From the NCBI GenBank assembly GCA_023411215.1, contig JAEYOY010000038.1:1-64000 (forward strand): 64,000 nt of DNA. Direction: 5' to 3'. Shown here one piece after another: positions 20,984-35,137 of this stretch. Each line of letters begins with the position of its first letter. Position 1 is the first letter of the stretch. This DNA is from Bacillota bacterium. GTDB taxonomy: Bacteria > Bacillota > Clostridia > Lachnospirales > Lachnospiraceae. Below the pieces are notes generated by a model. That model searched no databases, was not told where the DNA came from, and saw only the letters and a list, made by a program, of their open reading frames with translations. The position numbers were made by a program, and so were the translations under genes.

Positions 20984-23623
20984 CTATGCCTTCTGTAGCT
21001 TTCGTTGTATTGCTTTCACAATCTCTACAATCGGAATAACACTGACAGCTAACAGCATTGCGATTCCATATTCCTCTAAGCTGATATGCTCAAATTCGAA
21101 GATGTTACTGAGGAAAGGAATATATATTACCGCCGTGGTCAGAATCAAGCTCATGGCAGCGGCTCCGATCAGTACCACATTCTGAGTATTCATACGAAAA
21201 ATTGATCCACGCTGACTTCTCATATTAAAACTATGGAATATCTCAGCCATACTCATAGTTAAAAAGGCCATCGTCATACCATCTGGACTGTTTACAAATT
21301 CCCATCTACCGGATTCAATATAATGACCGAGTAAATAAGCCAATAAGGTTACGACTGTTACCATTGCCCCCTGATACGCAACATCAATTCCGACACCACC
21401 GGAGAAAATCCCATCCTTAGAGGAGCGAGGCTTACGCTGCATCAGATCCTTCTCACCCTGCTCCATACCAAGTGCCAATGCCGGGAAGCAGTCTGTGATC
21501 AGGTTAATCCATAAGATATGCACGGGTTTCATGATAGTAAAGCCCAACAAGGTAGCAGTAAAGATGGATAATACCTCACTTAAGTTGGAGGATAAGAGGA
21601 ACTGTATCGCTTTACGGATATTGTCGTAAATTCGTCGTCCTTCTCCTACAGCTGATACAATGGTAGCAAAATTATCGTCGGCCAGTACCATGTCTGCAAC
21701 ATTCTTTGTTACGTCAGTACCTGTGATACCCATACCGACACCGATATCAGCACTCTTGATGGAAGGTGCATCATTTACTCCATCACCGGTCATAGCGGTG
21801 ATCATACCCTTCTTCTTCCAGGCTGTTACGATACGTACTTTATGCTCCGGTTGAACACGGGCATAGACGCCATAATTCTCGATGGTAGCCTGAAGCTCTT
21901 CGTCAGAGATCTCATTCAGCTGTGCTCCAGTTATGGCTTGCATCGGATCTTGAATAATACCAATCTGTGTTGCAATTGCAATGGCCGTATCTCTATGATC
22001 TCCCGTAATCATAACAGGACGGATACCTGCACTGCGACATTCCTTTATCGCTTCGATAACCTCTGGACGTACCGGATCAATCATACCGGTTAAACCGATG
22101 AATATAAGTTCCTTCTCCAAGAACTCAGGAGTGTACTCCGTCGGTGCTGTCTCATAGGTACGGTAGGCTGCTGCCAGGACGCGAAGTGCTTTGTCTGCCA
22201 TTCGTTTGTTTTCTTTTAATATCTCCTGACGCTTCTTCTCTGTCATAGGAAGGACTGTACCATTCTCTATGTAGAAAGTACATACGCGGAGTACTTCATC
22301 GGGAGCACCCTTTGTAAATTGTACAATACCTGAATTGTCATGTACGGTAGACATCATCTTTCGAACAGAATCAAAGGGAGCCTCTCCGATACGAGGAAAT
22401 ACTTTCTTCAATTCCGGCTTCAAGAGCGACAGCGTAGCCGCATAATTAACCAAAGCACATTCGGTGGGTTCACCGATTGCAGATCCATTCTCCAGCTCAG
22501 CATCACAACAGAGTGCCATTGCTCTACCAAGCAATTCCTCATCAGAGGTAAAATGATCAACTACAGTCATCTTATTCTGTGTCAGAGTTCCGGTCTTATC
22601 ACTACAGATAATCTGGGTACAGCCTAAGGTCTCAACTGCTGTTAATCGGCGAATTACTGCATTACGCTTACTCATATTCGTAACACCGATGGATAGAACG
22701 ATAGTTACAACAGCTGCCAGACCCTCAGGAATAGCGGCTACCGCTAGACTTACTGCCACCATGAAGGTATCAAGGACAACTGTTCCGTTCAAATCACCGG
22801 ATCGGAGCAGGCTGAATGCAAAGATGAATACACAGATACCAATTACAAGAACGGTAAGAATCTTACTTAATTGGTTTAATTTAATTTGAAGAGGAGTCTC
22901 GCCTTCTTCTGTTTTCGTGATGGCATCTGCAATCTTTCCCATCTCAGTGTCCATGCCGGTAGCGACAACAACAGCGCGCCCACGTCCATATACCACTGTA
23001 CTTCCCATGTAAGCCATGTTCTTCCGATCACCCAGGGGTATCTCCTTCTCTTCCTTTTTCAGAGATAGGATATCAATGATTTTATTTACAGGAACGGATT
23101 CACCGGTTAACGCAGCTTCTTCGATCTTCAAGCTGGCGCTTTCTAAGATTCTGCAATCAGCTGGAACAGAATCTCCTGCTTCCAGAAGAACCATATCACC
23201 AACAACCAGTTCCTCACTTTTTACACTTACAATAGTCCCGTCGCGAAGCACCTTACTCGTAGCTGCTGCCATCTCCTGTAGGGCTTCTATTGCCTTCTCA
23301 GCTTTATTTTCCTGATATACACCAAGCACGGCATTAATGATTACTACAATCAAAATGATGAAAACATCCGCAATAGACTCTCCGGCATAGATACTGGTTG
23401 CACCCGATATTGCTGCTGCCACGAGCAGTATTATAATCATAGGATCGGTAAGCTGGGATAAAAATCGTTTAAGCAGGCCATCCTTCTTACCCTCTACCAG
23501 TTTGTTCTTACCATTCTTCTCCAATCTTTCTTTGGCCTCAGAGGCGGTAAGCCCCTCTGCTTTACTTCCTACTACTTTTAACACATTTTCTTCTTGCTCA
23601 AGATAAAACTTCATTCGCGACAA
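20984..23623 (-). CDS. P-type cation-transporting ATPase (P2-type, Ca2+/Mn2+-ATPase family)
   Basis: DKTGTLT phosphorylation motif (CSDKTGTLTQN), TGDGVNDAPS hinge motif, 10 TM helices. The likely true start is the ATG 3 codons into the ORF, with an aaggaaggga RBS. Confidence 0.9.
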   Translation of the reverse strand: MSRMKFYLEQEENVLKVVGSKAEGLTASEAKERLEKNGKNKLVEGKKDGLLKRFLSQLTDPMIIILLVAAAISGATSIYAGESIADVFIILIVVIINAVLGVYQENKAEKAIEALQEMAAATSKVLRDGTIVSVKSEELVVGDMVLLEAGDSVPADCRILESASLKIEEAALTGESVPVNKIIDILSLKKEEKEIPLGDRKNMAYMGSTVVYGRGRAVVVATGMDTEMGKIADAITKTEEGETPLQIKLNQLSKILTVLVIGICVFIFAFSLLRSGDLNGTVVLDTFMVAVSLAVAAIPEGLAAVVTIVLSIGVTNMSKRNAVIRRLTAVETLGCTQIICSDKTGTLTQNKMTVVDHFTSDEELLGRAMALCCDAELENGSAIGEPTECALVNYAATLSLLKPELKKVFPRIGEAPFDSVRKMMSTVHDNSGIVQFTKGAPDEVLRVCTFYIENGTVLPMTEKKRQEILKENKRMADKALRVLAAAYRTYETAPTEYTPEFLEKELIFIGLTGMIDPVRPEVIEAIKECRSAGIRPVMITGDHRDTAIAIATQIGIIQDPMQAITGAQLNEISDEELQATIENYGVYARVQPEHKVRIVTAWKKKGMITAMTGDGVNDAPSIKSADIGVGMGITGTDVTKNVADMVLADDNFATIVSAVGEGRRIYDNIRKAIQFLLSSNLSEVLSIFTATLLGFTIMKPVHILWINLITDCFPALALGMEQGEKDLMQRKPRSSKDGIFSGGVGIDVAYQGAMVTVVTLLAYLLGHYIESGRWEFVNSPDGMTMAFLTMSMAEIFHSFNMRSQRGSIFRMNTQNVVLIGAAAMSLILTTAVIYIPFLSNIFEFEHISLEEYGIAMLLAVSVIPIVEIVKAIQRKLQKA

Positions 23624-25325: not shown

Positions 25326-25622
25326 TCACTCTGATCGGTTACTTTTTATGATGTCATAGCCTAAAAGCTGTATTAACTTTAGCGCTTCCATCGAGGTTCT
25401 ACGGTCAAGCTCCTTCTCAGCTTCGGGTAGCTCATCATAGGATACTAAATTCGGATGCCGTTTTAAGCGGTCATTTCTTTTAGGGCCATAACTCCATCCA
25501 TTCTTCAATCTCTCTTCTGCCCAATTTTCATGGGTATTCTTTGCCAGTGTCTCTGCTATTTTTAATAGGTTATGATCTATTGCAACCTTGCTTGTATCGA
25601 TTGGATTTGGAATATATTTCAT
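25326..25622 (-). CDS. standalone RyR (ryanodine-receptor) domain protein
   Basis: 98 aa. HENWAEERLKNGWSYGPKRNDRLKRHPNLVSYDELPEAEKELDRRT closely matches the bacterial RyR-domain consensus (NWA...GW.YG...D...HP.LVPYEELPE.EKE.DR). Confidence 0.7.
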   Translation of the reverse strand: MKYIPNPIDTSKVAIDHNLLKIAETLAKNTHENWAEERLKNGWSYGPKRNDRLKRHPNLVSYDELPEAEKELDRRTSMEALKLIQLLGYDIIKSNRSE

Positions 25623-25635
25623 AGGTTAACCTCTT

Positions 25636-27468
25636 TTATAAATCACTTTTTGTTATACCATAACCTGAGGAAGATAAAATCAATCCAAGATTCTGTATCA
25701 GGAACTGGTCTGCTTTTTTATAATCTTTATTGAATACAGAACTTACATGATCAAGCTCATCCCATTCAACCAAACAACTATGTAATTTTAGGACTTCATC
25801 CTTGTTTTTTTCCTTCCCTTGAATATCAGTCATGGTTCTCCATCCATTTACAAAATGGTATGCATTCCATCTCATATGCTCTCCCTTTGATAACTGATCA
25901 AAGATAACATTATCTTTCAAAAGATTTTCATAGATTGTCGTTTTAGATCCTTTTTCATAACTGAGTCCAACGGAATTTAGCTTGGACTGGAAATGTAAAG
26001 CCAACGCTCTATTTGACTGCTTTTCAAAAAGGCTGATCTCCTCCCAAGTCCTAGTACTTTTATATACCGAATTATAAAAATCATGACATTGTTTCGCTAG
26101 ATGATCCAACTCTTCATTTATAATATTATTCTCTGTAAACAAATTATTTGATGACCCAAACCATATAACGTTACTAAGCAAGGTTGTTTTAAATAGTACT
26201 TTATATTTCTCATAATCTTTCACATATGCACATATCCTGGCTTTTGCCTTACTATGAATACATAGCCGGCTAACCTCGGATGCAGTCTCTACATCATCAT
26301 TAGCAATTATGATACAATTCAGATCAGGGAGATACCCCTTAAGCTTAATATAATATTGTTCTGTATCAAGCTTTGCATCAACAAACTCAAATGATGCGCA
26401 CTTCTCAACTTCCGGATTTTTTTGAAAAAAGGAAGCGGTTTTATCCCTGATCTCTTGTTCAACCAGAACTAACTTTAATTTAATGCCATCACATTGACCC
26501 AAAATGATAATATTTCTATATAGATCTTCACATATCTCTGAAAAACCGATGATGCATACCGTTAGTACCTCCTTCTTATCAAGTGTACTAACAAGCGTAA
26601 ATTGATCAAACAGCTGTCGGGAGATCAGATTATTCAAATCTATGATATGAATATCCAGTTGTGAAAAATCATCCCTAGAAAATACATCCTCACAAATATT
26701 ATGATCGGTGAAAACATACAGACTAACATCCTTATTCTTTTTTTTATTCTTTTTGTAACTTTCAGCATATTGATCAGTAAAAGTTATATTATCATAAATA
26801 TCTTCATTGATTGCAAAAATAAACGTCTTGTATTTTACAAATCTTAAACAAATGTTAATGATATCGTCAAGACTATATATCATGTATATAATATGTCCAT
26901 ATTTTGAAGCTTCTATTTCAAGCCTTATACTCTCATCCGAGTCACTTTTATTATCAACACTAAGGATTATGATGCTGTCTTTATTTTGCTTTTTAATATC
27001 ATTTGCTAGAGCTAAACTGTTTTTATTCAGCGCTGTAAAAATGTATACTTTCTTATTCCGAGTAAAACACCGGATAAACTTCAACTGAATCTTGCTCATT
27101 ACCCGATAACCTAACAGGGATAATATGATCATTCCGGTTACCAGCAGGGAAAAGGTCATGATAAGACCAAAAAAAATATTATACAGAGGCATGTTAGTAA
27201 CATTTGTTTCAAAAGAGGAAATATCATTTTCTAATACAAACATTCTTCCCGTACTGAAAATTGCCATTAATCCAGATGATATATAATCAAGAGGGCCCTG
27301 GCTTTTTGTGAGATATCCAATGGTATAGATACATATACCCAATATAATAAATGCAGATAGTATTTTTAATCGATGCTTTGCAAACCAGGTCTGATACCGA
27401 GATATTATAAATACTCCAAAAAATATTAATAGAATATCAAAAATGATAATTATGATTTGAACTAGCAT
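25636..27468 (-). CDS. membrane protein with degenerate RCK/TrkA-like middle region and C-terminal RyR domain
   Basis: 610 aa, 4 N-terminal TM helices. The C-terminal ~90 aa (EHMRWNAYHFVNGW...LHSCLVEWDELDHV) is RyR-like. The gene is very AT-rich. Confidence 0.55.
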   Translation of the reverse strand: MLVQIIIIIFDILLIFFGVFIISRYQTWFAKHRLKILSAFIILGICIYTIGYLTKSQGPLDYISSGLMAIFSTGRMFVLENDISSFETNVTNMPLYNIFFGLIMTFSLLVTGMIILSLLGYRVMSKIQLKFIRCFTRNKKVYIFTALNKNSLALANDIKKQNKDSIIILSVDNKSDSDESIRLEIEASKYGHIIYMIYSLDDIINICLRFVKYKTFIFAINEDIYDNITFTDQYAESYKKNKKKNKDVSLYVFTDHNICEDVFSRDDFSQLDIHIIDLNNLISRQLFDQFTLVSTLDKKEVLTVCIIGFSEICEDLYRNIIILGQCDGIKLKLVLVEQEIRDKTASFFQKNPEVEKCASFEFVDAKLDTEQYYIKLKGYLPDLNCIIIANDDVETASEVSRLCIHSKAKARICAYVKDYEKYKVLFKTTLLSNVIWFGSSNNLFTENNIINEELDHLAKQCHDFYNSVYKSTRTWEEISLFEKQSNRALALHFQSKLNSVGLSYEKGSKTTIYENLLKDNVIFDQLSKGEHMRWNAYHFVNGWRTMTDIQGKEKNKDEVLKLHSCLVEWDELDHVSSVFNKDYKKADQFLIQNLGLILSSSGYGITKSDL

Positions 27469-27610
27469 AATTTTCTCCTTCGATTAATCATTTAATTGCT
27501 AACAAAACCATCATAATTTATGTCAAATTATAAATAAAATCTTCTGGTACTTTATACAATGGAATTTGAAATAATTCATTACCACATTCAAGCGAGAATA
27601 TTTATTAACG

Positions 27611-28132
27611 CTATTGCTGTTTAGCTCCGCATCTGGAACAGAAAACTGCATCGACTGTTATCTGATGACCACAGGCTGTACAGAAAGCACCGGCAGTGGT
27701 TGTCGAAGTTTTATAACTGCTATATCCATTCGCTTCGAGGGTATGTACCGCTTCTTCGACCACGCTTATTGCCTCATCATCCAGTTTGGATTGTTTCACT
27801 AGGCCTGATATCTGAGTAAGCAACACGGGCCACGCAATAAATAAGGATATTGCTGAAGGGATCAACTGCTGTCCAAAGATTCCTACCTTGGCACTTACTG
27901 ATATTCCCCCCATTGCTTCCTTTATTTCGATATTTAAAGCAGTTTTCATTCCAAGAATTGACTTAAAGATTCCGCCCTTGCTAATACTGATAAACTGCCC
28001 AAACGCATTCCCTTCCACATGAACAGTATATCCGTTATTTTCAAAATGAGTTTTTGCTATCTTCGCAACTTCATCCAAACTTTTATAATGAGTTGTTATA
28101 AATTTATCCGATTTAAATGTAGCCATATTCAT
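27611..28132 (-). CDS. hypothetical protein with C-terminal zinc ribbon
   Basis: 173 aa. One hydrophobic helix. C-terminal CTACG...CSRCG zinc-ribbon motif. Confidence 0.5.
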   Translation of the reverse strand: MNMATFKSDKFITTHYKSLDEVAKIAKTHFENNGYTVHVEGNAFGQFISISKGGIFKSILGMKTALNIEIKEAMGGISVSAKVGIFGQQLIPSAISLFIAWPVLLTQISGLVKQSKLDDEAISVVEEAVHTLEANGYSSYKTSTTTAGAFCTACGHQITVDAVFCSRCGAKQQ

Positions 28133-28140
28133 ATCCTCCC

Positions 28141-28386
28141 CTATATACGCTTACTATTCAGTGTGTATAGTACTGCCATTTCACTGAATGCATCAACGAA
28201 CAATTTTTTATCATCATCACTTACCTGTTGATTAATCTGCTTCAGAAGGTTTAGTACTACGTTTGACTGCTCTATGATTTCCTCGTCCGTTATTCGTGCA
28301 TCCTCCATTATTTTTTTGTAGCTTGGCATCTCCATCACTATTTCATCCAAACATAAAAATCCATTTTTATCAAATAAGCTCAACAT
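28141..28386 (-). CDS. small hypothetical protein
   Basis: ORF 28141..28416. Its start is probably the internal Met (MLSLFDK), which avoids overlap with the upstream M48 gene. Confidence 0.3.
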   Translation of the reverse strand: MLSLFDKNGFLCLDEIVMEMPSYKKIMEDARITDEEIIEQSNVVLNLLKQINQQVSDDDKKLFVDAFSEMAVLYTLNSKRI

Positions 28387-29279
28387 GTAAAGTCCTCCTC
28401 TATTTTCTTTCCGCAATGTTTACAGAATACCCAGTCTTTCTCAACCATTCCACCACAACTGCGGCATTCATTATCATTTTGCTTCATATAATCCATAATT
28501 TTCTCAAAATCGCTACTCTCACACCATTGCTTAATCTCGGCAGCACGTACAGCAGTAAAGGGATGTGTCTGGTTCATCAATACCATAAACTGAAGAGTCT
28601 TGTTCCATAAGGAACTATCAATCAATTTTTGATATTCTTTTGCCTGTTCGATGTATAGCTTCTGATTCACCTTTGCCGTAATATTTTTACTTCCTCCAGA
28701 AAGGCGTGTCATAACCTCTATTACTGAGGAACAGCTCTGAAGATATACTGCAGCAGCCCGATCCGCGGAAAATTCACTGCATCTTTGCCAATGGCAAAAG
28801 GCTATCTTAAGAGGTAAAGAGATTGCATCTATTCCCAATAAATCTATCCCCTGGTTGATAATTATATCTGCCATAGAATGATACAGACAATGCCTGCATG
28901 CAATATGTCCACACTCATGAGCAAGTACTGCTTTCACTTCATCCTCTTCCATGATTTCAATCAATCCTGAAGTTACTGTTATGGAAATCATTGAATCACC
29001 GAAGGTATACGCATTTGGATAAGGATTCATTTCCAGATAAAACTCAGGTTCCGTAATGCCCAATACTTTACATATAGGTGGCAGCAGTTGGTATATTTCC
29101 GGTAACTGATCGGGTCCGAGCCTAATCTTACTTGACATATTAATCCCATGAATCATAGTTTCATTATAAATTTTCATAAAAGTTTTTAATACCAGTTGAA
29201 ATCCAGGTATCGCTTCTAGCGCCAGTAAAGTTTTCTTATCCTGTTCATGGTAATAGTTACTTGGGTTAATTACTTTCAT
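28380..29279 (-). CDS. M48-family zinc metallopeptidase with C-terminal zinc ribbon
   Basis: HEXXH motif (LAHECGHIACRH) in an M48/Ste24-like context. C-terminal CRSCG...CKHCG ribbon. Confidence 0.7.
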   Translation of the reverse strand: MKVINPSNYYHEQDKKTLLALEAIPGFQLVLKTFMKIYNETMIHGINMSSKIRLGPDQLPEIYQLLPPICKVLGITEPEFYLEMNPYPNAYTFGDSMISITVTSGLIEIMEEDEVKAVLAHECGHIACRHCLYHSMADIIINQGIDLLGIDAISLPLKIAFCHWQRCSEFSADRAAAVYLQSCSSVIEVMTRLSGGSKNITAKVNQKLYIEQAKEYQKLIDSSLWNKTLQFMVLMNQTHPFTAVRAAEIKQWCESSDFEKIMDYMKQNDNECRSCGGMVEKDWVFCKHCGKKIEEDFTC

Positions 29280-29871
29280 ATAAGCAATCTCCTTCCATTA
29301 ATACACAGATAAAGCCTACATCTCTTTGTCATATAGACTTAATTCACAGTGATACTTACCTTTTTTACTCATTTTTTTATGTAAGGATTTCCATTTGTCC
29401 AATCACATCTAGTTACATTATCACTGCCTTATTTGCATTCTAAATGTTCTAAATCATTTTAATTGACTTAGTGGCATAATTGTATTTTATTAGTTAATTT
29501 TACCATATTTCTTCATGACATGCATTACATTTTTAATTTCAAACCAATACATTTCATTCTTCTTTCATTCTTTTTAAACGTTCTAAAATAAGTTCTAGCA
29601 AATTCTCATATGCATATCTTATTAAGAAAGGCATGAAACGAACGACTATCTTGTCCAATAACATCTGACCAATTCAGGAACAGCCTCATCTAAGATACAT
29701 TTTTCCATTTGCTCTATCATCTAGCAGGAGCCCCTATAATATCATGCAAAGCCCGAATGATTATTAACAGTACCGTAAATTTGTATTGTTATATTCTGTT
29801 TAATTATGGTAAAATATACCTAGGTTTTATCCTAATAAATAGATTATCATTCTTAAAGTGGGGAGGAAAAT

Positions 29872-32800
29872 ATGATGCAAAATTCATTTGATACAACACC
29901 TGAAACAGAGGAAAAGTATACCTATTATGCCTTTATCAGCTATAAACATGAAGATGAAAAATGGGCCAGATGGATTCAGAATAAATTGGAGACCTACAAG
30001 TTGCCTACGGTTCTGCAAAAGGAAATTAGAGACCTCCCAAATCGCATCACTCCGATTTTTCGTGATAAGACGGATATCACCTCAGGCCCCTTAAAGAAGA
30101 CCCTTTCGAAGGAGCTACAGTCTTCCAGATTCCTAATAGTCATATGTTCTCCCAATGCAGCAAAATCAATTTATGTGGATTATGAGGTTGAGCAATTTAT
30201 CCGAATGGGAAGACAGGACAGAATCATTCCTCTGATCATCGACGGTGCTGTCAGAACCCAGAACCCTGAACAGGAATGCTTTGTTCCATCTCTTCTTGCA
30301 ATGGAGGAAACCATCCTTGGTGTAGATCTACCTACGCTTGGTAAGCACAAAGCTTTCCTGACAGTTATAGCCACGATGCTTGATATTAAGCTGGATACCC
30401 TAGTGAGGAGGGATCGGATCAGACAAAAGAAAAAAAACCTTCTGGCGACGGCAAGCATCACTATATTGCTGATACTTGCAGGCTTTACACTGGATTATTA
30501 CATCCCTAAGACCTATTATTATTCCGATTATGTACTGCAATGGGGAATACCAAAGGGTATATTCCGGCTTGACTATAGCTTCCTAGCCTTTGGTAAGAAT
30601 GAGCTGAAGGATAGAGACGATTTTTACGCTGTTACCATATCAAAATCCAATAAGACGATTACGCTGAAGCATATGAATTCCGCCATGGTTCCGGTTGACT
30701 ATCCAACCGAAACGGAGCAGAGTGACCGACCGGTTTTTGCAGAATATGATTATAAAGTTACGGATGGAATTAAGCAAGTTTCAGATGCAAAGTACTTCGA
30801 CAGATACGGGAATATTATACTTGTGCTGAAGTATTCGGACGACTCTACCATCGTTGATTTCACCAGCCCAGATGGATCCAACACCCCTGTTACCTTATCC
30901 GGAAGCTTGTTTTCAGAAAACGGTACAATGGATGTTAAAAATTTGGAAATAAAAAGCTCAATCACACGATACATATATCAATATGATGAAAACGGATACA
31001 TCAGTCTGGTTAAATTCATGCGAGATAACCGTGCCACATCCCCTACGCCGGATCAGAACGGAATCACGGGTTACATCTGTACGGTCGATCAATACGGCAG
31101 AGTAGTTACTAAGAGAATGAATTATGTATTTGATAATACCATCCATAATACTGTATTTGACAGAATCTATTACAATTACGCTTACCAATCTCCCAACCTT
31201 GTTAGTGTGGTATATACTGATGCCGAAGATAATTTGATATATAATGGTGATTTCTATGCAAAAAAAGAATTTTTCTATTATGATAATGGGAATATTAGTG
31301 ATATTTATTATTATGGGACAGATGGTGAAAAATGCACAGGCCCTTATGGTTATGCCCACGCCAGCATCATTTACGATAATAAAGGCTTTATACAGGAAGT
31401 TGATTACTATAACGAAAATAATTATCCGGTCATCACCGTATTCGGCTATGCGAAGGCGCAGCATGTACACGACAAGAAGGGCAATTTGACACAAGCTTCT
31501 GTATTCGATACCGATGGGAATCCAGTTGTGGCACTTCCTACTGATATATATCGGTATGTCAGCGGTTTTTCTACGATTCGTCGGGTTTATGATGAGAAAA
31601 ACATGCTCATTAGTGAAACCTATTACGATGAAAACGATGAACCCATGCTTTGTACTGGTGAATATGCAAGGCTCGATACCGCGTATCATAAAGGTCTTCT
31701 CAGTGAAGTAAGCTATTATGATGTTAACGGCGAACCAAAAACATGTAATATAGGCTTTGAAAAATTCACAAAGGAATATAATGAGTTCGACCTGGCGATC
31801 AACTGGCGATACTGCAATGCAGATGGGACCCTGTCGGAAACAACATGGGGATATTCCCGTATTGAGCTAGAGTATGATGAGAATAGAAATATAAAATCCT
31901 ATTCCTTTTATGATGAGAATGACCGACTCGTCATGACGGAAGATAACATTGCCCGCCAGGAACTAGTCTGGGATGACAGAGGACTGTTGTCTGAACAAAG
32001 TAATTATGATACGGTCGGTAACCTTGTTGTTTCAACCGCCGGATATGCCAAGAATGTTAAGGAATACAATGAAAGCGGTTTGTTGACCAAGGATATCTAC
32101 TATGATCAGAATGAGGAGCCGGTGTACGTTCCGGATCAAGGCTATGCAAGATATGAAGCAGCCTATGATGAATATGGTGACTGCACTTATAAGTCATATT
32201 ATGACGTTGATGGTCAGCTGGTTATGACCAATTATGGATATGCAGAATACAAAGCCTGGTATGACAGCAAAGCACAGAAGGTCGAGGAAGCCTATTACGA
32301 CGAAACAGGTAGTCTGGTCCTTCCAAATGGTTATGATTGGGCAAGACATACCATGGCATATACGGAAGAAGGATTACCAAAATGTGAAAGCTATTATGAT
32401 GCAGATAATCACCTGGTAATCAATTCTTACACCGGCTATGCAAAATGCTATGCAGAGTATGATGAGTGGAATAATATGCGTTCAAAAACCTTCTACGGTA
32501 CGGATGGTAAGGAGTTCATCTCACCGAATTTGGGGTTTGCTTCCGTTAAATATGTATACGAGAATAACTACCTGATCAGGACCAGCTATTATGATGAAAA
32601 AGGAGATCTGATTATTTCCCCAACCATTAACTATGCCGAGCAGATCCAGAAGCTGGATTCGAATGGAAAACTTCTTAGCAGCTGTACATATGACGATACA
32701 GGGAAGCCGATCCTTAATCTTTACGGTTATTCCAGCGTAACATGTACCTATAATCAAAAAGGGTTAGAGACAAATAGACAATACCTTGATGCCCAGGGCA

Positions 32801-33276
32801 AGCCGACGATTGCCCTGAATTATGGTTACGCAGAGATGGATATTCTTTATAATAAGGATGGTACATGGAAAAATGCCGTATTTTATGACCAGAGTGGCAA
32901 GGAAATTGATTCAAATCTGATTGTAACGAAATCCTTTGTATATATTTCTGAGGTTAAAGCACAGAGTGCCGGCTTAAAAGCCGGAGTACATATTAATGAT
33001 CTTATACTGCAGTACGGCGACTGGTGTTATTTCCCTGTGAATGAAGAAGATAGTATGTTTACCCTTCTTACAAATGAATTAGAAAGAGTAAAGGATTTAT
33101 CTAAAAAAGTTGTAATATATCGTCCGACGGACGCTTCCATCCAAACCTATCAATTTGATAGCGGGATGGTGGGACTACGAATTAACTCTGTAGATTTCAG
33201 CTTCCCGAGTCAGGAGGCTTATATGGAATACAGCACGGGACTGGAGTCGGCTTATCTTAGTAGCGGCTTAGAATAA
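29872..33276 (+). CDS. TIR-domain transmembrane protein with extracellular YD-like repeats and C-terminal PDZ-like domain
   Basis: N-terminal TIR_2-like motif (YYAFISYKHEDEKWARWIQNKLE...FLIVICSPN...DYEVEQF). One TM helix (LLATASITILLILAGFTLDYYI). About 20 tandem ~23-aa YD-like repeats (GYA...YDE.G.L.....YYD..G.PV). C-terminal GLKAGVHINDLILQYGDW PDZ-like segment. Confidence 0.6.
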   Translation: MMQNSFDTTPETEEKYTYYAFISYKHEDEKWARWIQNKLETYKLPTVLQKEIRDLPNRITPIFRDKTDITSGPLKKTLSKELQSSRFLIVICSPNAAKSIYVDYEVEQFIRMGRQDRIIPLIIDGAVRTQNPEQECFVPSLLAMEETILGVDLPTLGKHKAFLTVIATMLDIKLDTLVRRDRIRQKKKNLLATASITILLILAGFTLDYYIPKTYYYSDYVLQWGIPKGIFRLDYSFLAFGKNELKDRDDFYAVTISKSNKTITLKHMNSAMVPVDYPTETEQSDRPVFAEYDYKVTDGIKQVSDAKYFDRYGNIILVLKYSDDSTIVDFTSPDGSNTPVTLSGSLFSENGTMDVKNLEIKSSITRYIYQYDENGYISLVKFMRDNRATSPTPDQNGITGYICTVDQYGRVVTKRMNYVFDNTIHNTVFDRIYYNYAYQSPNLVSVVYTDAEDNLIYNGDFYAKKEFFYYDNGNISDIYYYGTDGEKCTGPYGYAHASIIYDNKGFIQEVDYYNENNYPVITVFGYAKAQHVHDKKGNLTQASVFDTDGNPVVALPTDIYRYVSGFSTIRRVYDEKNMLISETYYDENDEPMLCTGEYARLDTAYHKGLLSEVSYYDVNGEPKTCNIGFEKFTKEYNEFDLAINWRYCNADGTLSETTWGYSRIELEYDENRNIKSYSFYDENDRLVMTEDNIARQELVWDDRGLLSEQSNYDTVGNLVVSTAGYAKNVKEYNESGLLTKDIYYDQNEEPVYVPDQGYARYEAAYDEYGDCTYKSYYDVDGQLVMTNYGYAEYKAWYDSKAQKVEEAYYDETGSLVLPNGYDWARHTMAYTEEGLPKCESYYDADNHLVINSYTGYAKCYAEYDEWNNMRSKTFYGTDGKEFISPNLGFASVKYVYENNYLIRTSYYDEKGDLIISPTINYAEQIQKLDSNGKLLSSCTYDDTGKPILNLYGYSSVTCTYNQKGLETNRQYLDAQGKPTIALNYGYAEMDILYNKDGTWKNAVFYDQSGKEIDSNLIVTKSFVYISEVKAQSAGLKAGVHINDLILQYGDWCYFPVNEEDSMFTLLTNELERVKDLSKKVVIYRPTDASIQTYQFDSGMVGLRINSVDFSFPSQEAYMEYSTGLESAYLSSGLE

Positions 33277-33283
33277 CCTGCAC

Positions 33284-33307
33284 CTGAGGCGGGGTTGCCC
33301 GCCTCAG
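33284..33307. terminator. bidirectional hairpin between convergent TIR genes
   Basis: ctgaggcggggttgcccgcctcag (GC-rich 9-bp stem). No strong U-run on either side. Confidence 0.45.
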
Positions 33308-33382
33308 ATTTATGATAGATAATTGTACCTTCTGTGCTTTAAAACCTTCTTATAAAGTTCTCACAATAAAAGCTGCTACATT

Positions 33383-35137
33383 TTATTCCATTACCTCACA
33401 AAGATCATATAATAATACAAGACTATCACCAACCGGTATTTCACCTTCCGCAATATCAAATCCTGATCCATTATATCGAAGTACTTTTACTTTGCTATTT
33501 TCATTTTTTATTCTGGCAGTCACAATATCTTCCATGGTCTTTATTTTTTTGCCGTTCATTTCAATTAAGATATCACCAAGCAGATAGAAGCTGTTCTGTG
33601 GCTTATCCGGTTCATACCCACCGATTAAACATCCGTAGTCAATCCCTGTACTGTCAACTTGTCTAAAGAATGCCTCTGCAATTGGAATGAAAACATCTGC
33701 CTCATCCGATGTATCCTTCTCATGGAATATCTCAAGGCATTCAATACACATATCATACATCTTCAGGGTATTAAAGCGAAGCATCTTCCCCCATATTATG
33801 CCTACTTCATCCGTCTCTAATGGTTTAAATTTTTCCTTTGCTTCTTCCTTTGTCTTATTCAATTCTTCCGTGACTTCCTTTAGTTTATTTACCTTACCCT
33901 CCAGCTCATCGAGCTGTACATTATAATCCCCTATTATAGAAGCAATTTCAGTAATTATATTTTGATACTTCGTAAAATTTGCGTCTGATATCGCTTTTAT
34001 TTCTTCCTTATTCTTACTCCACGACTGCCCATTATAGATATCCGGTAGTATGGGGAGCAATTCTGCTTTAAAATCTTTCAGAGCATCTTCATCTACATCA
34101 ACCAGGATATCATTTATGCCATAAAAAATCAGGTCCTTATTAATATCCATAATCTGTTCATAATAATCTGACAATTGAGTCATCGATGTTTTGGATAATA
34201 CACTTTCACCGGAGGACATATATATCATGTAGTCAATATTATTGAGGAATTCATCGGTACAAGTGATTAGGAAGTCCCTTACAGCAATAATATCATCTTT
34301 TGCTAGAATGGTATTATCAAGCTTTGCCGATAAAGTATCATCCAGTGTGACATAATTATCCTTCGCCTTTGTGATTTTCTCCTTGTTCTTTCTTAAATCC
34401 GATTGAAGAGCAGTATAATTAATTTCAGTCGGATCTGTTAGATAGTATTGGAATGCAGTTATAGCAAGATCATATTCTGCGATTGCTATATTGGCATTTG
34501 TTAAGTTTGTTGAAATATAATATATTACTTCCTTTACGGTGTTCTTATCCGCTTTCGAATATGGAAACGATGCCTGTGTTGTTTGATAGAACTGATACCC
34601 TGTGAATATGACACCAAAAGTAACAAACAATGCAATAACCAAGGGTAAAACCTTTTTAATTAAGCTATTATGAGTGATTCTATGTACAATCCTAGGCTTT
34701 GTTTTTAAAAATTCTACCAACCGTTTTGCAAAAGCATCAAAAAATTCTGTAGATGCCTCTATTCCGCTTTGATACCGAAGCTGTTCCATATCCTCGGGTA
34801 GCTTATCAGGAAATTGAAAGCCTCTTAACAGGACCGGTACCACATTCTTCCTTTTCTGTAAAGCATAAGCTACTTCCAGTCTGACCCAGTCATTATCATT
34901 GCCACATCGCTCCAAACAATTCGGCGATAAAACGGAGATAAAATCCTCGCATTCATCGATTACTGAAAACAGCTTTGAGTTGAATTGCCCCGAGCGAAGC
35001 GATTCAACGTCAAAAAATACATTATATCCCAATTCGGTTAATTTATCATGAATTATTTTAGCTGTATACTCTCCGCCTTCACGCCGATAGCTTATAAAAA
35101 TATCATATTTCATAGTAACTATACCTCCCTGATACAA
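33383..35137 (-). CDS. TIR-domain transmembrane protein with extracellular coiled-coil region and C-terminal PDZ-like domain
   Basis: N-terminal TIR (KYDIFISYRREGGEYTAKIIHDKLTELGYNVFFD...DFISVLSPNCLERCGNDNDWVRLEVAYAL). TM helix (VLPLVIALFVTFGVIFTGYQFY). C-terminal GDILIEMNGKKIKTMEDIVTARIKNENSKVKVLRYNG PDZ-like. Confidence 0.6.
   Translation of the reverse strand: MYQGGIVTMKYDIFISYRREGGEYTAKIIHDKLTELGYNVFFDVESLRSGQFNSKLFSVIDECEDFISVLSPNCLERCGNDNDWVRLEVAYALQKRKNVVPVLLRGFQFPDKLPEDMEQLRYQSGIEASTEFFDAFAKRLVEFLKTKPRIVHRITHNSLIKKVLPLVIALFVTFGVIFTGYQFYQTTQASFPYSKADKNTVKEVIYYISTNLTNANIAIAEYDLAITAFQYYLTDPTEINYTALQSDLRKNKEKITKAKDNYVTLDDTLSAKLDNTILAKDDIIAVRDFLITCTDEFLNNIDYMIYMSSGESVLSKTSMTQLSDYYEQIMDINKDLIFYGINDILVDVDEDALKDFKAELLPILPDIYNGQSWSKNKEEIKAISDANFTKYQNIITEIASIIGDYNVQLDELEGKVNKLKEVTEELNKTKEEAKEKFKPLETDEVGIIWGKMLRFNTLKMYDMCIECLEIFHEKDTSDEADVFIPIAEAFFRQVDSTGIDYGCLIGGYEPDKPQNSFYLLGDILIEMNGKKIKTMEDIVTARIKNENSKVKVLRYNGSGFDIAEGEIPVGDSLVLLYDLCEVME

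Follow-up and report, generated by a model that had tools for sequence, protein, structure and literature searches.

TIR receptor-like proteins linked to RyR-domain genes in a Lachnospiraceae genomic island: a candidate system for NAD-derived signalling

Introduction

What does a TIR domain do at the inner face of a bacterial membrane when the rest of its protein lies outside the cell? The question is raised by two convergent genes, here called A and B, in a 64,000-nucleotide stretch of a Bacillota genome (Lachnospiraceae; GenBank assembly GCA_023411215.1, contig JAEYOY010000038.1, positions 1 to 64,000; hereafter the window). Both products start with a TIR domain, pass through one transmembrane (TM) helix and end, after a large ectodomain, in a PDZ-like module. 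An initial annotation, made from the sequence letters, treated A and B as a two-gene system; it mentioned the RyR-domain and zinc-ribbon genes next to them, which are indeed present, as scenery, where they are in fact conserved partners. Comparison of gene neighborhoods showed that the conserved unit is a larger TIR-RyR island, not the A/B pair, and that the RyR domain (PF02026) is a recurring partner of B-family TIR genes. On the evidence below, the chances are about even that this island (positions 25326–35113) encodes a TIR-RyR signalling system, in which surface-sensing TIR proteins make an ADP-ribose (ADPR)-type signal that is read by RyR-domain membrane proteins.

The A and B families are widespread and nearly anonymous. 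Database names for their members are mostly "TIR domain-containing protein" and otherwise "hypothetical" or "YD repeat-containing protein". The literature searched, PADLOC and NCBIfam hold no description of either family beyond "TIR domain-containing protein", in agreement with the initial claim that no TIR-TM-PDZ system had been described. The A-type family comprises at least 531 and the B-type family at least 364 clusters at 90% identity, and the hosts are Lachnospiraceae, other Clostridia, Bacteroidota, Verrucomicrobiota, Planctomycetota and Lentisphaerota.

Results

Linkage of B-type TIR genes to RyR-domain genes

An alignment of the B family retrieved 80 species-level loci (designated by L numbers), whose neighboring open reading frames (ORFs) were clustered and then re-scanned with hidden Markov models (HMMs). 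Three kinds of gene were counted as partners, encoding a 600–700-residue membrane protein with a RyR domain (RyR-TM), a small (~95 residues) RyR protein, or a ~580-residue protein with four TM segments, termed c3_600. Among the 56 species-level loci that hold a full-length B-family gene, 37 have a partner. In 30 of the 56 the partner is no more than 300 bp away from that gene, on the same strand in 29 of these 30 and often with overlaps of 1–8 bp. The c3_600 gene is accompanied by a small RyR gene in nine of the 12 loci of this set that have it. No partner was seen at the other 19 of the 56 loci, of which 13 have under 3 kb of flanking sequence on one side and six are well flanked (at least 3 kb on both sides).

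The linkage spans Bacillota, Bacteroidota and Verrucomicrobiota, with the partner upstream or downstream and the RyR domain either fused or split off. Because gene order varies and the RyR domain may be fused or separate, the linkage appears to be under selection. B-type TIR genes with other C-terminal regions (L052 and L055) also have a small RyR gene and c3_600; therefore, the RyR linkage goes with the TIR domain rather than with the PDZ domain.

Several loci resemble the window closely. In L093, genes for RyR, RyR-TM, M48, the 81-residue protein, the zinc-ribbon protein, TIR, TIR-YD and TIR-YD follow one another co-directionally with short gaps, which is essentially the gene set of the window in one cluster. 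The order is TIR, RyR-TM, RyR in L094, and c3_600, RyR-TM, M48, 81-residue protein in L096, after which the contig ends. An 80% orthologue of A (L001) adjoins zinc-ribbon, 81-residue, M48, RyR and RyR-TM genes, and an 80% orthologue of B (L003) adjoins RyR and c3_600. A metagenome scan with a narrower RyR-TM alignment yielded two loci only.

Boundaries of the conserved unit

A and B do not form an obligate pair. Between their stop codons is a stem-loop, followed by a T-run on the plus strand only, that is likely to be a terminator for the two convergent genes. A YD-type gene neighbors a full-length B gene at one of 55 loci outside the window (L046), and at L077 a YD-type gene adjoins a B-type TIR gene that lacks the PDZ domain. 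Seven more distant homologues of A (29–53% identity) are solo genes beside ribosomal, enolase, cytochrome-maturation or metabolic genes. These neighborhoods, together with the terminator between convergent genes, rule out the two-gene system that had been proposed. The unit in the window instead consists of a minus-strand run (M48, 81-residue protein, zinc-ribbon protein, RyR-TM and RyR98, in this order), gene A, which is divergent from this run, and gene B, which is transcribed separately (Table 1).

At L046 (3677–9213), a 1339-residue protein has YD repeats and a PDZ domain without a TIR domain, and is preceded by a 503-residue protein with a C-terminal TIR domain; this arrangement may be a split version of family A.

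Table 1. Features of the TIR-RyR island and of related loci. Positions are those of the window unless a locus is named.
Feature	Position	Strand	Description
RyR98	25326–25622	-	98-residue stand-alone RyR protein; single Repeat12-type repeat; Pfam RyR
RyR-TM	25636–27468	-	610 residues; three hydrophobic TM segments, two Rossmann-like regions, C-terminal RyR domain
RyR-TM, RyR domain	25639–25953	-	residues ~506–610
Zinc-ribbon protein	27611–28132	-	173 residues; one TM segment (residues 90–112); C-terminal zinc ribbon (Pfam Zn_Ribbon_1, 29.3 bits)
81-residue protein	28141–28386	-	soluble cassette protein; ATG at 28386 with AGGAGG upstream; mechanical ORF reaches 28416
M48 protein	28380–29279	-	299-residue M48-family zinc metallopeptidase; HECGH; C-terminal zinc ribbon; first gene of the minus-strand run
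Gene A	29872–33276	+	1134-residue type-II membrane protein; ORF confirmed
Gene A, TIR domain	29920–30276	+	residues 17–135; catalytic Glu105 at 30184–30186
Gene A, TM helix	30436–30504	+	residues 189–211
Gene A, YD-type β-hairpin array	30508–32886	+	residues 213–1005
Gene A, PDZ-like domain	32923–33204	+	residues 1018–1111; followed by a C-terminal helix
Stem-loop	33284–33307	+	10-bp GC-rich stem, CTGAGGCGGG-GTTG-CCCGCCTCAG; between the stop codons of A and B
Gene B	33383–35113	-	576-residue type-II membrane protein
Gene B, PDZ-like domain	33404–33631	-	residues 495–570
Gene B, helical ectodomain	33644–34555	-	residues 187–490
Gene B, TM helix	34574–34666	-	residues 150–180
Gene B, TIR domain	34709–35113	-	SARM1-like; residues 1–135; catalytic Glu80 at 34874–34876
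c3_600	L003 8073–9836		~580 residues; soluble N-terminal half and four TM segments; also in 11 related loci
Variable-ectodomain TIR genes	L037 11829–13580; L053 11842–14826; L005 4051–7278		neighbors of B-family genes

Architecture of the TIR proteins

Both ORFs were found where they had been placed, except for the start of gene B, which is most likely ATG 35113 and not TTG 35137, because GGGAGG lies 9 nt upstream of the ATG and identical database entries have 576 residues. The TIR_2-type N-termini were borne out by Pfam matches above the threshold of 28 bits (A, residues 21–132, 53.9 bits; B, residues 13–124, 54.2 bits), by structure comparison and by the TIR motifs quoted for them, AFISYKHEDEKW in A and DIFISYRREGG...NDNDWVRLE in B. 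Each protein has a single hydrophobic segment directly after the TIR domain (residues 189–211 in A, about 158–184 in B), preceded on its N-terminal side by a Lys/Arg-rich stretch, RRDRIRQKKKN in A and KTKPRIVHRITHNSLIKK in B. Because the basic run is on the TIR side of each TM segment, the TIR domains are predicted to be cytoplasmic, and the remainder of both proteins should be outside.

AlphaFold2 models of both proteins are of high quality, with mean predicted local distance difference test (pLDDT) values of 87.8 for A (50 homologues) and 88.0 for B (56 homologues). The model of A has a long TM helix (174–210), 24 β-hairpins over residues 213–1005 with a regular period of ~32 residues starting at residue 431, an α/β domain (1018–1111) and a terminal helix; its sequence contains 19 Y[DNT]xx[GN] motifs. 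In the model of B, the ectodomain (187–490) is all helical, with one helix of 60 residues, and is followed by a small β domain (495–570). A search with the helical ectodomain of B returned only generic helical-bundle matches (PhoU and sensor domains). The regions between TM and PDZ are unrelated in A and B according to hhalign, and the C-terminal domains are homologous to each other (94%, E 1e-7).

The HMM check that the initial annotation had suggested gave a mixed result. Whereas TIR_2 matched both proteins, Pfam RHS_repeat and PDZ gave no match in A or B at E≤0.1, and these domains were found in their homologues. RHS_repeat matches many homologues of A. PDZ_6 exceeds its threshold (27 bits) in one homologue of A (P0094, 27.8) and two of B (P0153, 30.8; P0184, 30.9), and at E≤0.01 PDZ_6 or PDZ is found in 17 of the 56 B homologues. 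Foldseek relates the C-terminal domain in the model of A to the PDZ domains of GRASP65 and Nas2 (E ~1e-3). The PDZ and YD assignments thus come from family-level and fold-level evidence rather than from Pfam matches of the window proteins. With hydropathy, the AlphaFold2 models and this family-level evidence for PDZ, the architecture first described for the pair holds: the TIR domain is cytoplasmic, a single TM helix follows, and the large ectodomain has a PDZ domain at its end.

In Foldseek, the ectodomain of A resembles Rhs cores, Tc toxin BC components and teneurins (E 4e-27 to 3e-12); for the YD repeats of Rhs proteins and teneurins the range is 4e-27 to 1e-17. As modelled, this likeness is at the level of the repeat, without a closed shell (TM-scores ~0.2). 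The similarity, which extends to the Rhs cores of type VI secretion systems, is the main reason to ask whether A could be an Rhs/WapA-type polymorphic toxin or a YD adhesin, with the TIR domain as delivered toxin and its adjacency to B and the RyR genes incidental. TIR NADases do serve as interbacterial toxins in some systems. In A, however, the TIR domain is N-terminal and on the cytoplasmic side of the membrane instead of being encapsulated at the C-terminus; the protein has no DPxGL Rhs-core motif, no PAAR domain and no signal peptide, and ends in a PDZ domain. Its fit to closed Rhs shells is poor, and L093 and L001 again hold the gene set in collinear order. Of the alternatives weighed here this is the least probable, and its Rhs-toxin form was ruled out by the missing core motif and the wrong topology.

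Other ectodomains are found on related proteins. Neighbors of B-family genes in other genomes encode a TIR domain and one TM helix joined to WD40 propellers or to unknown ectodomains. One neighbor joins TIR to DUF285 and leucine-rich repeats (LRR), so that the domains of a Toll-like receptor appear in reverse order; it has no clear TM helix. These WD40, LRR and other-ectodomain paralogues make the combination of a TIR domain, a TM helix and a variable ectodomain a broad, receptor-like design. A and B are two examples of this design, and the "inverted Toll-like-receptor logic" noticed for the pair extends beyond it.

Catalytic residues and similarity to SARM1

The B TIR domain shares ~39% identity with the human SARM1 TIR domain across its whole length (phmmer E 6e-26), including the aligned pairs DIFISY/DVFISY, DVESLRSGQF/DVEKLEAGKF and DWVRLE/DWVHKE. 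The glutamate of the SARM1 motif DWVHKE is the catalytic E642. A 2020 survey found no bacterial SARM1 homologues (PMC7075850); by sequence comparison, family B is a bacterial homologue of SARM1 at the level of this domain. The A TIR domain gave no sequence-level match in the PDB.

The equivalent glutamate of B, Glu80, is invariant in 56 homologues, and Glu105 of A (in YVDYE), which aligns with it, is invariant in 50. Each of the two glutamates sits in a W/Y-x-x-x-E context. Both TIR domains thus appear catalytically equipped; the initial annotation had named a missing TIR fold or catalytic residue as the finding that would speak against it, and fold and residue are both present. This bears on whether the TIR domains could be non-catalytic scaffolds that signal through TIR-TIR contacts, as in animal Toll-like receptors, beside independent RyR proteins. 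Many TIR domains signal by assembly only (PMC7075850), and several TIR paralogues cluster in the same loci. Nevertheless, the invariant glutamate in both families, the SARM1-type Box1 and BB-loop motifs of B, and the linkage to RyR, a domain that binds the products of TIR enzymes, argue for catalysis, and the scaffold explanation is very improbable.

In PADLOC and NCBIfam, matches of A and B are at the level of the TIR domain only (NCBIfam ThcB4, 39 bits against a cut-off of 220), and assignment to a known defence system was ruled out on this basis.

RyR-domain proteins and c3_600

RyR98 is a clear member of the RyR family (Pfam RyR, 112.6 bits, E 1e-32, cut-off 27.4). By sequence it matches RyR1 Repeat12 (E 1e-53) and the Bacteroides thetaiotaomicron structure 3NRT (E 4e-28), and it contains the motifs THENW, KRHPNLV and ELDRR. 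Small RyR genes of this kind recur beside B-type TIR genes.

RyR-TM by itself is below the Pfam RyR cut-off (14.4 bits), and Pfam RyR matches 14 of 24 members of its family. The family profile matches solved RyR domains (6uhi, E 4e-9; 3NRT, E 7e-4), and the C-terminal domain aligns with the small RyR proteins (hhalign 96%, E 3e-9). Residues E530, H531, W534, H563 and C565 are invariant, as is D587 within the 610-residue subfamily. Residues 1–125 contain the TM segments (by hydropathy), with a conserved GLMAIFSTGRMFVxEND loop between the second and third. Because positive charges follow TM1 and TM3, the C-terminal portion is suggested to be cytoplasmic. The two Rossmann-like regions are weakly supported (TrkA_N in 2 of 24 homologues; PADLOC CARF_TM, E 5e-4). 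An exhaustive profile search gave 739 clusters at 50% identity (E≤1e-30), mostly of 600–700 residues. In many species the RyR-TM gene immediately adjoins a B-family gene. No homologue bears an informative name in the database searched; they are unnamed or "hypothetical protein", and one partial match is called "nitroreductase".

Ligands of RyR domains are known from work on phage proteins. According to two 2026 preprints, phage RyR domains bind or cleave cyclic ADPR (cADPR) isomers made by TIR domains (PMC13232231; 10.64898/2026.06.04.730250). In the structure of phage RyDEP, 3'cADPR is bound through H75 and D117 at the terminal ribose, through W78, which is stacked against the adenine, and through H100, which coordinates the phosphates; other phage RyR homologues act as sponges (PMC13232231). 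RyR Tad binds 3'cADPR (dissociation constant 43 nM), 2'cADPR and cADPR (10.64898/2026.06.04.730250). The His-x-x-Trp, His and Asp ligand positions of RyDEP and RyR Tad have equivalents, by motif, in both RyR98 and RyR-TM. RyR98 is accordingly a predicted binder or hydrolase of ADPR-type nucleotides, and RyR-TM a predicted signal-gated membrane effector. The effector role of RyR-TM is proposed by analogy with Thoeris, because there the gene beside the TIR gene encodes the signal-activated effector, frequently a TM protein (10.64898/2025.12.03.692087).

For c3_600, sub-threshold matches to SLATT_1 or SLATT_4 were found in one or two of 12 members; a profile search of the PDB was empty, and a SLOG-like N-terminus was not confirmed. 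In type VII Thoeris, canonical cADPR is the signal to which SLATT effectors respond (10.64898/2025.12.03.692087). The idea that c3_600 is a split form of RyR-TM was rejected (hhalign probability 0.1%).

Among the TIR genes of L047 (6529–9288), a 919-residue protein joins a RelA_SpoT nucleotide-pyrophosphokinase domain to a C-terminal RyR domain, and is thus a second enzyme of nucleotide signalling tied to RyR.

A and B could also be self-contained, their TIR domains, once switched on from outside or by the envelope, depleting NAD+ in the manner of SARM1 and causing growth arrest or death, with the RyR proteins as safety devices or salvage factors that mop up or hydrolyse cADPR-type by-products. 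The closest relative of the B TIR domain is indeed SARM1, an NAD+-depleting executioner; family A is mostly solo, and six well-flanked B loci lack RyR genes. The characterised RyR proteins are a signal-degrading enzyme or sponges, and RyDEP feeds the resynthesis of NAD+ (PMC13232231). In RyR98, moreover, His and Asp are retained at the positions of the catalytic dyad of RyDEP. What NAD+ depletion leaves unexplained is the commonest partner of B, a 600–700-residue RyR membrane protein in a tight two-gene operon with it, and the four-TM c3_600 with its sub-threshold SLATT similarity, usually found with a small RyR gene; both partners look like effectors. We regard self-contained NAD+ depletion as the main alternative, though an unlikely one.

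M48 cassette and island context

The first three genes of the minus-strand run form a cassette. The M48 protein matches Pfam Peptidase_M48 (68.5 bits) and Zn_ribbon_3 (E 5e-5) and has no TM segment by hydropathy. Its gene recurs in eight of 84 sequences (83 loci and the window), and also in L093 and L096. Homologues of the 81-residue protein are found in L001, L006, L046, L059, L077, L093 and L096. The cassette recurs with TIR or RyR genes in L001, L006, L046, L059, L065, L077 and L093, and in L096. Such occurrences of the cassette (27611–29279 on the minus strand of the window) with TIR/RyR genes were seen in three phyla.

The island measures ~9.8 kb and has a GC content of 0.367, compared with 0.40–0.41 in its flanks, so that the AT-rich block noted initially is real, if modest. 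Promoter-like sites in the island are not above the shuffled expectation (54 versus 44.7 ± 6.2). Carriage on a phage or plasmid was ruled out, with no full-length B homologue in 50,697 phage and 72,556 plasmid records and no tRNAs in the window.

A P-type cation ATPase (Cation_ATPase_N/C, E1-E2) is encoded 1.7 kb from the island (20984–23623, minus strand). Homologous ATPase ORFs are found near B-family genes in L010 (2435–4300, directly upstream of B) and L050 (3–1346). This proximity to RyR-type proteins is suggestive, and may be due to chance.

The surroundings of the island raise the question whether the TIR-RyR proteins serve phage defence at all. They might instead act in general transmembrane signalling or envelope homeostasis, with an NAD-derived messenger controlling ion flux in response to cues such as cell-wall or secreted-protein C-termini recognized by the PDZ domain, or host or community cues. 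Housekeeping genes surround the island, mobile-element and defence-island marks are absent from the window, and family A elsewhere is found beside ribosomal, enolase or cytochrome-maturation genes. Extracytoplasmic PDZ domains are also known to sense C-terminal peptides during envelope stress (DegS, RseP and CtpB). The patchy distribution, the low GC content of the island and the paralogue arrays with highly variable ectodomains (YD, WD40, LRR and helical) do not fit such a role easily, and the characterised bacterial TIR signalling systems are all anti-phage. A role outside defence would share the mechanism of TIR-RyR signalling and differ in purpose alone; we judge it improbable.

Discussion

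A mechanism for TIR-RyR signalling can be proposed from these features. A and B would be single-pass type-II receptors, with a cytoplasmic TIR domain, an outside sensor (YD repeats in A, a helical bundle in B) and homologous PDZ caps. An extracytoplasmic cue would bind or rearrange the ectodomain or PDZ domain and cluster the receptors. Once clustered, the TIR domains could form a composite active site in which NAD+ is turned into a signal derived from ADP-ribose (cADPR, 2'cADPR or 3'cADPR type). The TIR enzymes SARM1, plant TNLs and ThsB are activated by bringing TIR domains together. The RyR domains encoded alongside would read the signal. RyR-TM would be a membrane effector gated through its RyR domain, leading by ion flux or permeabilisation to growth arrest, and RyR98 would be a buffer or hydrolase that sets a threshold or ends the signal.

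Several observations weigh against this mechanism. The putative effector or channel nature of RyR-TM is read from its TM segments and from weak TrkA_N and CARF_TM similarity, and the conserved RyR residues fit a sensor, a sponge and a hydrolase alike. In the window, gene B is transcribed on its own and lies 5.9 kb away from the RyR genes, and family A is usually solo, far from any RyR gene. RyR-TM homologues are found without a TIR gene in the sampled DNA of L084 (9998–11821; ~10 kb upstream and 6.7 kb downstream) and L095 (7258–9087, in a 10-kb contig); TIR and RyR-TM genes can be unlinked there, or RyR-TM may have other inputs. The island is flanked by genes for a 2-hydroxyacid dehydrogenase and the P-type ATPase on one side and for an aspartate kinase on the other; no integrase, tRNA or other defence genes were found in the window, nor did PADLOC report defence-gene matches there beyond TIR-level similarity. 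The absence of full-length B homologues from the phage and plasmid collections points the same way.

Domain-level homologues of the SARM1 TIR domain and of RyR Repeat12 are nonetheless encoded side by side in the island, and the TIR-RyR linkage suggests an undescribed bacterial system for outside-to-inside, NAD-derived signalling. A more specific version, in which a cADPR-family nucleotide made by a SARM1-type TIR receptor gates a membrane protein through RyR Repeat12, is tentative and more doubtful than the general scheme. If it is correct, the island would hold a prokaryotic equivalent of the animal SARM1/cADPR/ryanodine-receptor modules, and perhaps their evolutionary origin. To our knowledge, the characterised bacterial TIR signalling systems all use cytoplasmic TIR sensors; TIR-RyR signalling would then be the first Thoeris-like system to sense events outside the cytoplasm. 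Hundreds of TIR membrane receptors with swappable ectodomains (YD, helical with PDZ, and WD40) would let bacteria translate surface events into NAD-derived messengers. Binding of cADPR isomers by RyR Repeat12 domains was shown in 2026 in phage proteins only, and host RyR membrane proteins in operons with SARM1-like TIR genes offer a candidate cellular receptor role for this domain. The linkage also makes the long-debated connection between cADPR and the ryanodine receptor testable in a simple system, for which the TIR domains with Glu80 and Glu105, RyR98 and RyR-TM residues 506–610 are concrete reagents.

Comparison with known systems

The closest parallel is Thoeris (types I–XI, with a TIR sensor, ThsB, and an effector). 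As in Thoeris, a TIR protein with a catalytic glutamate is encoded beside a protein with a putative domain for binding an ADPR signal; Thoeris effectors are often TM proteins, and B-family genes form tight two-gene operons with RyR-TM. In contrast to Thoeris, the TIR protein here is itself a transmembrane receptor with an extracytoplasmic sensor of 400–900 residues, the signal-binding module would be a RyR domain, and the window locus lies outside any defence island. A survey of TIR signalling lists 29 putative Thoeris types, many with TM effectors, and excluded stand-alone TIR proteins (10.64898/2025.12.03.692087). In the parts of that survey consulted, the text and four supplement files, RyR, PF02026, PDZ and M48 are not mentioned (10.64898/2025.12.03.692087). 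The window system matches no described Thoeris type or effector model, and looks like a new, surface-sensing, Thoeris-like variant.

With the animal SARM1/cADPR/RyR axis, the island shares a TIR domain close to that of SARM1 and, in RyR98, a strong match to Repeat12 of RyR1-3; in animals, cADPR is reported to modulate RyR channels (10.64898/2025.12.03.692087). The window proteins differ in having no ARM or SAM domains, and in carrying RyR on a ~610-residue protein with three TM segments instead of a 5000-residue channel.

Phage RyDEP and RyR Tad belong to the same fold family, PF02026, and their His/Trp/His/Asp contact positions are conserved by motif in the window proteins. However, RyDEP and RyR Tad are soluble and serve counter-defence by destroying or sequestering signals of the host, whereas the window RyR domains are encoded by the bacterium itself in linkage with TIR genes, and one of them is part of a membrane protein; this setting suggests a role as receptor or regulator.

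Toll-like and IL-1 receptors likewise cross the membrane once, with a repeat or sensor domain outside the cell and the TIR domain in the cytoplasm, and clustering through the ectodomain is the logic proposed here. The order is reversed in A and B, which have an N-terminal TIR domain and type-II topology, with YD repeats or a helical region plus PDZ in place of LRR or Ig domains. Their TIR domains are predicted to be catalytic rather than scaffolds. With the order reversed and the ectodomains different, the resemblance is one of logic only.

Finally, gene A shares YD β-hairpin repeats with teneurins and Rhs/Tc proteins, and its type-II topology with an intracellular N-terminal domain is teneurin-like. 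It differs from them in lacking an Rhs core or autoprotease motif, toxin cargo and EGF, NHL or Tox-GHH domains, in its poor global fit to the closed shells, and in ending in a PDZ domain.

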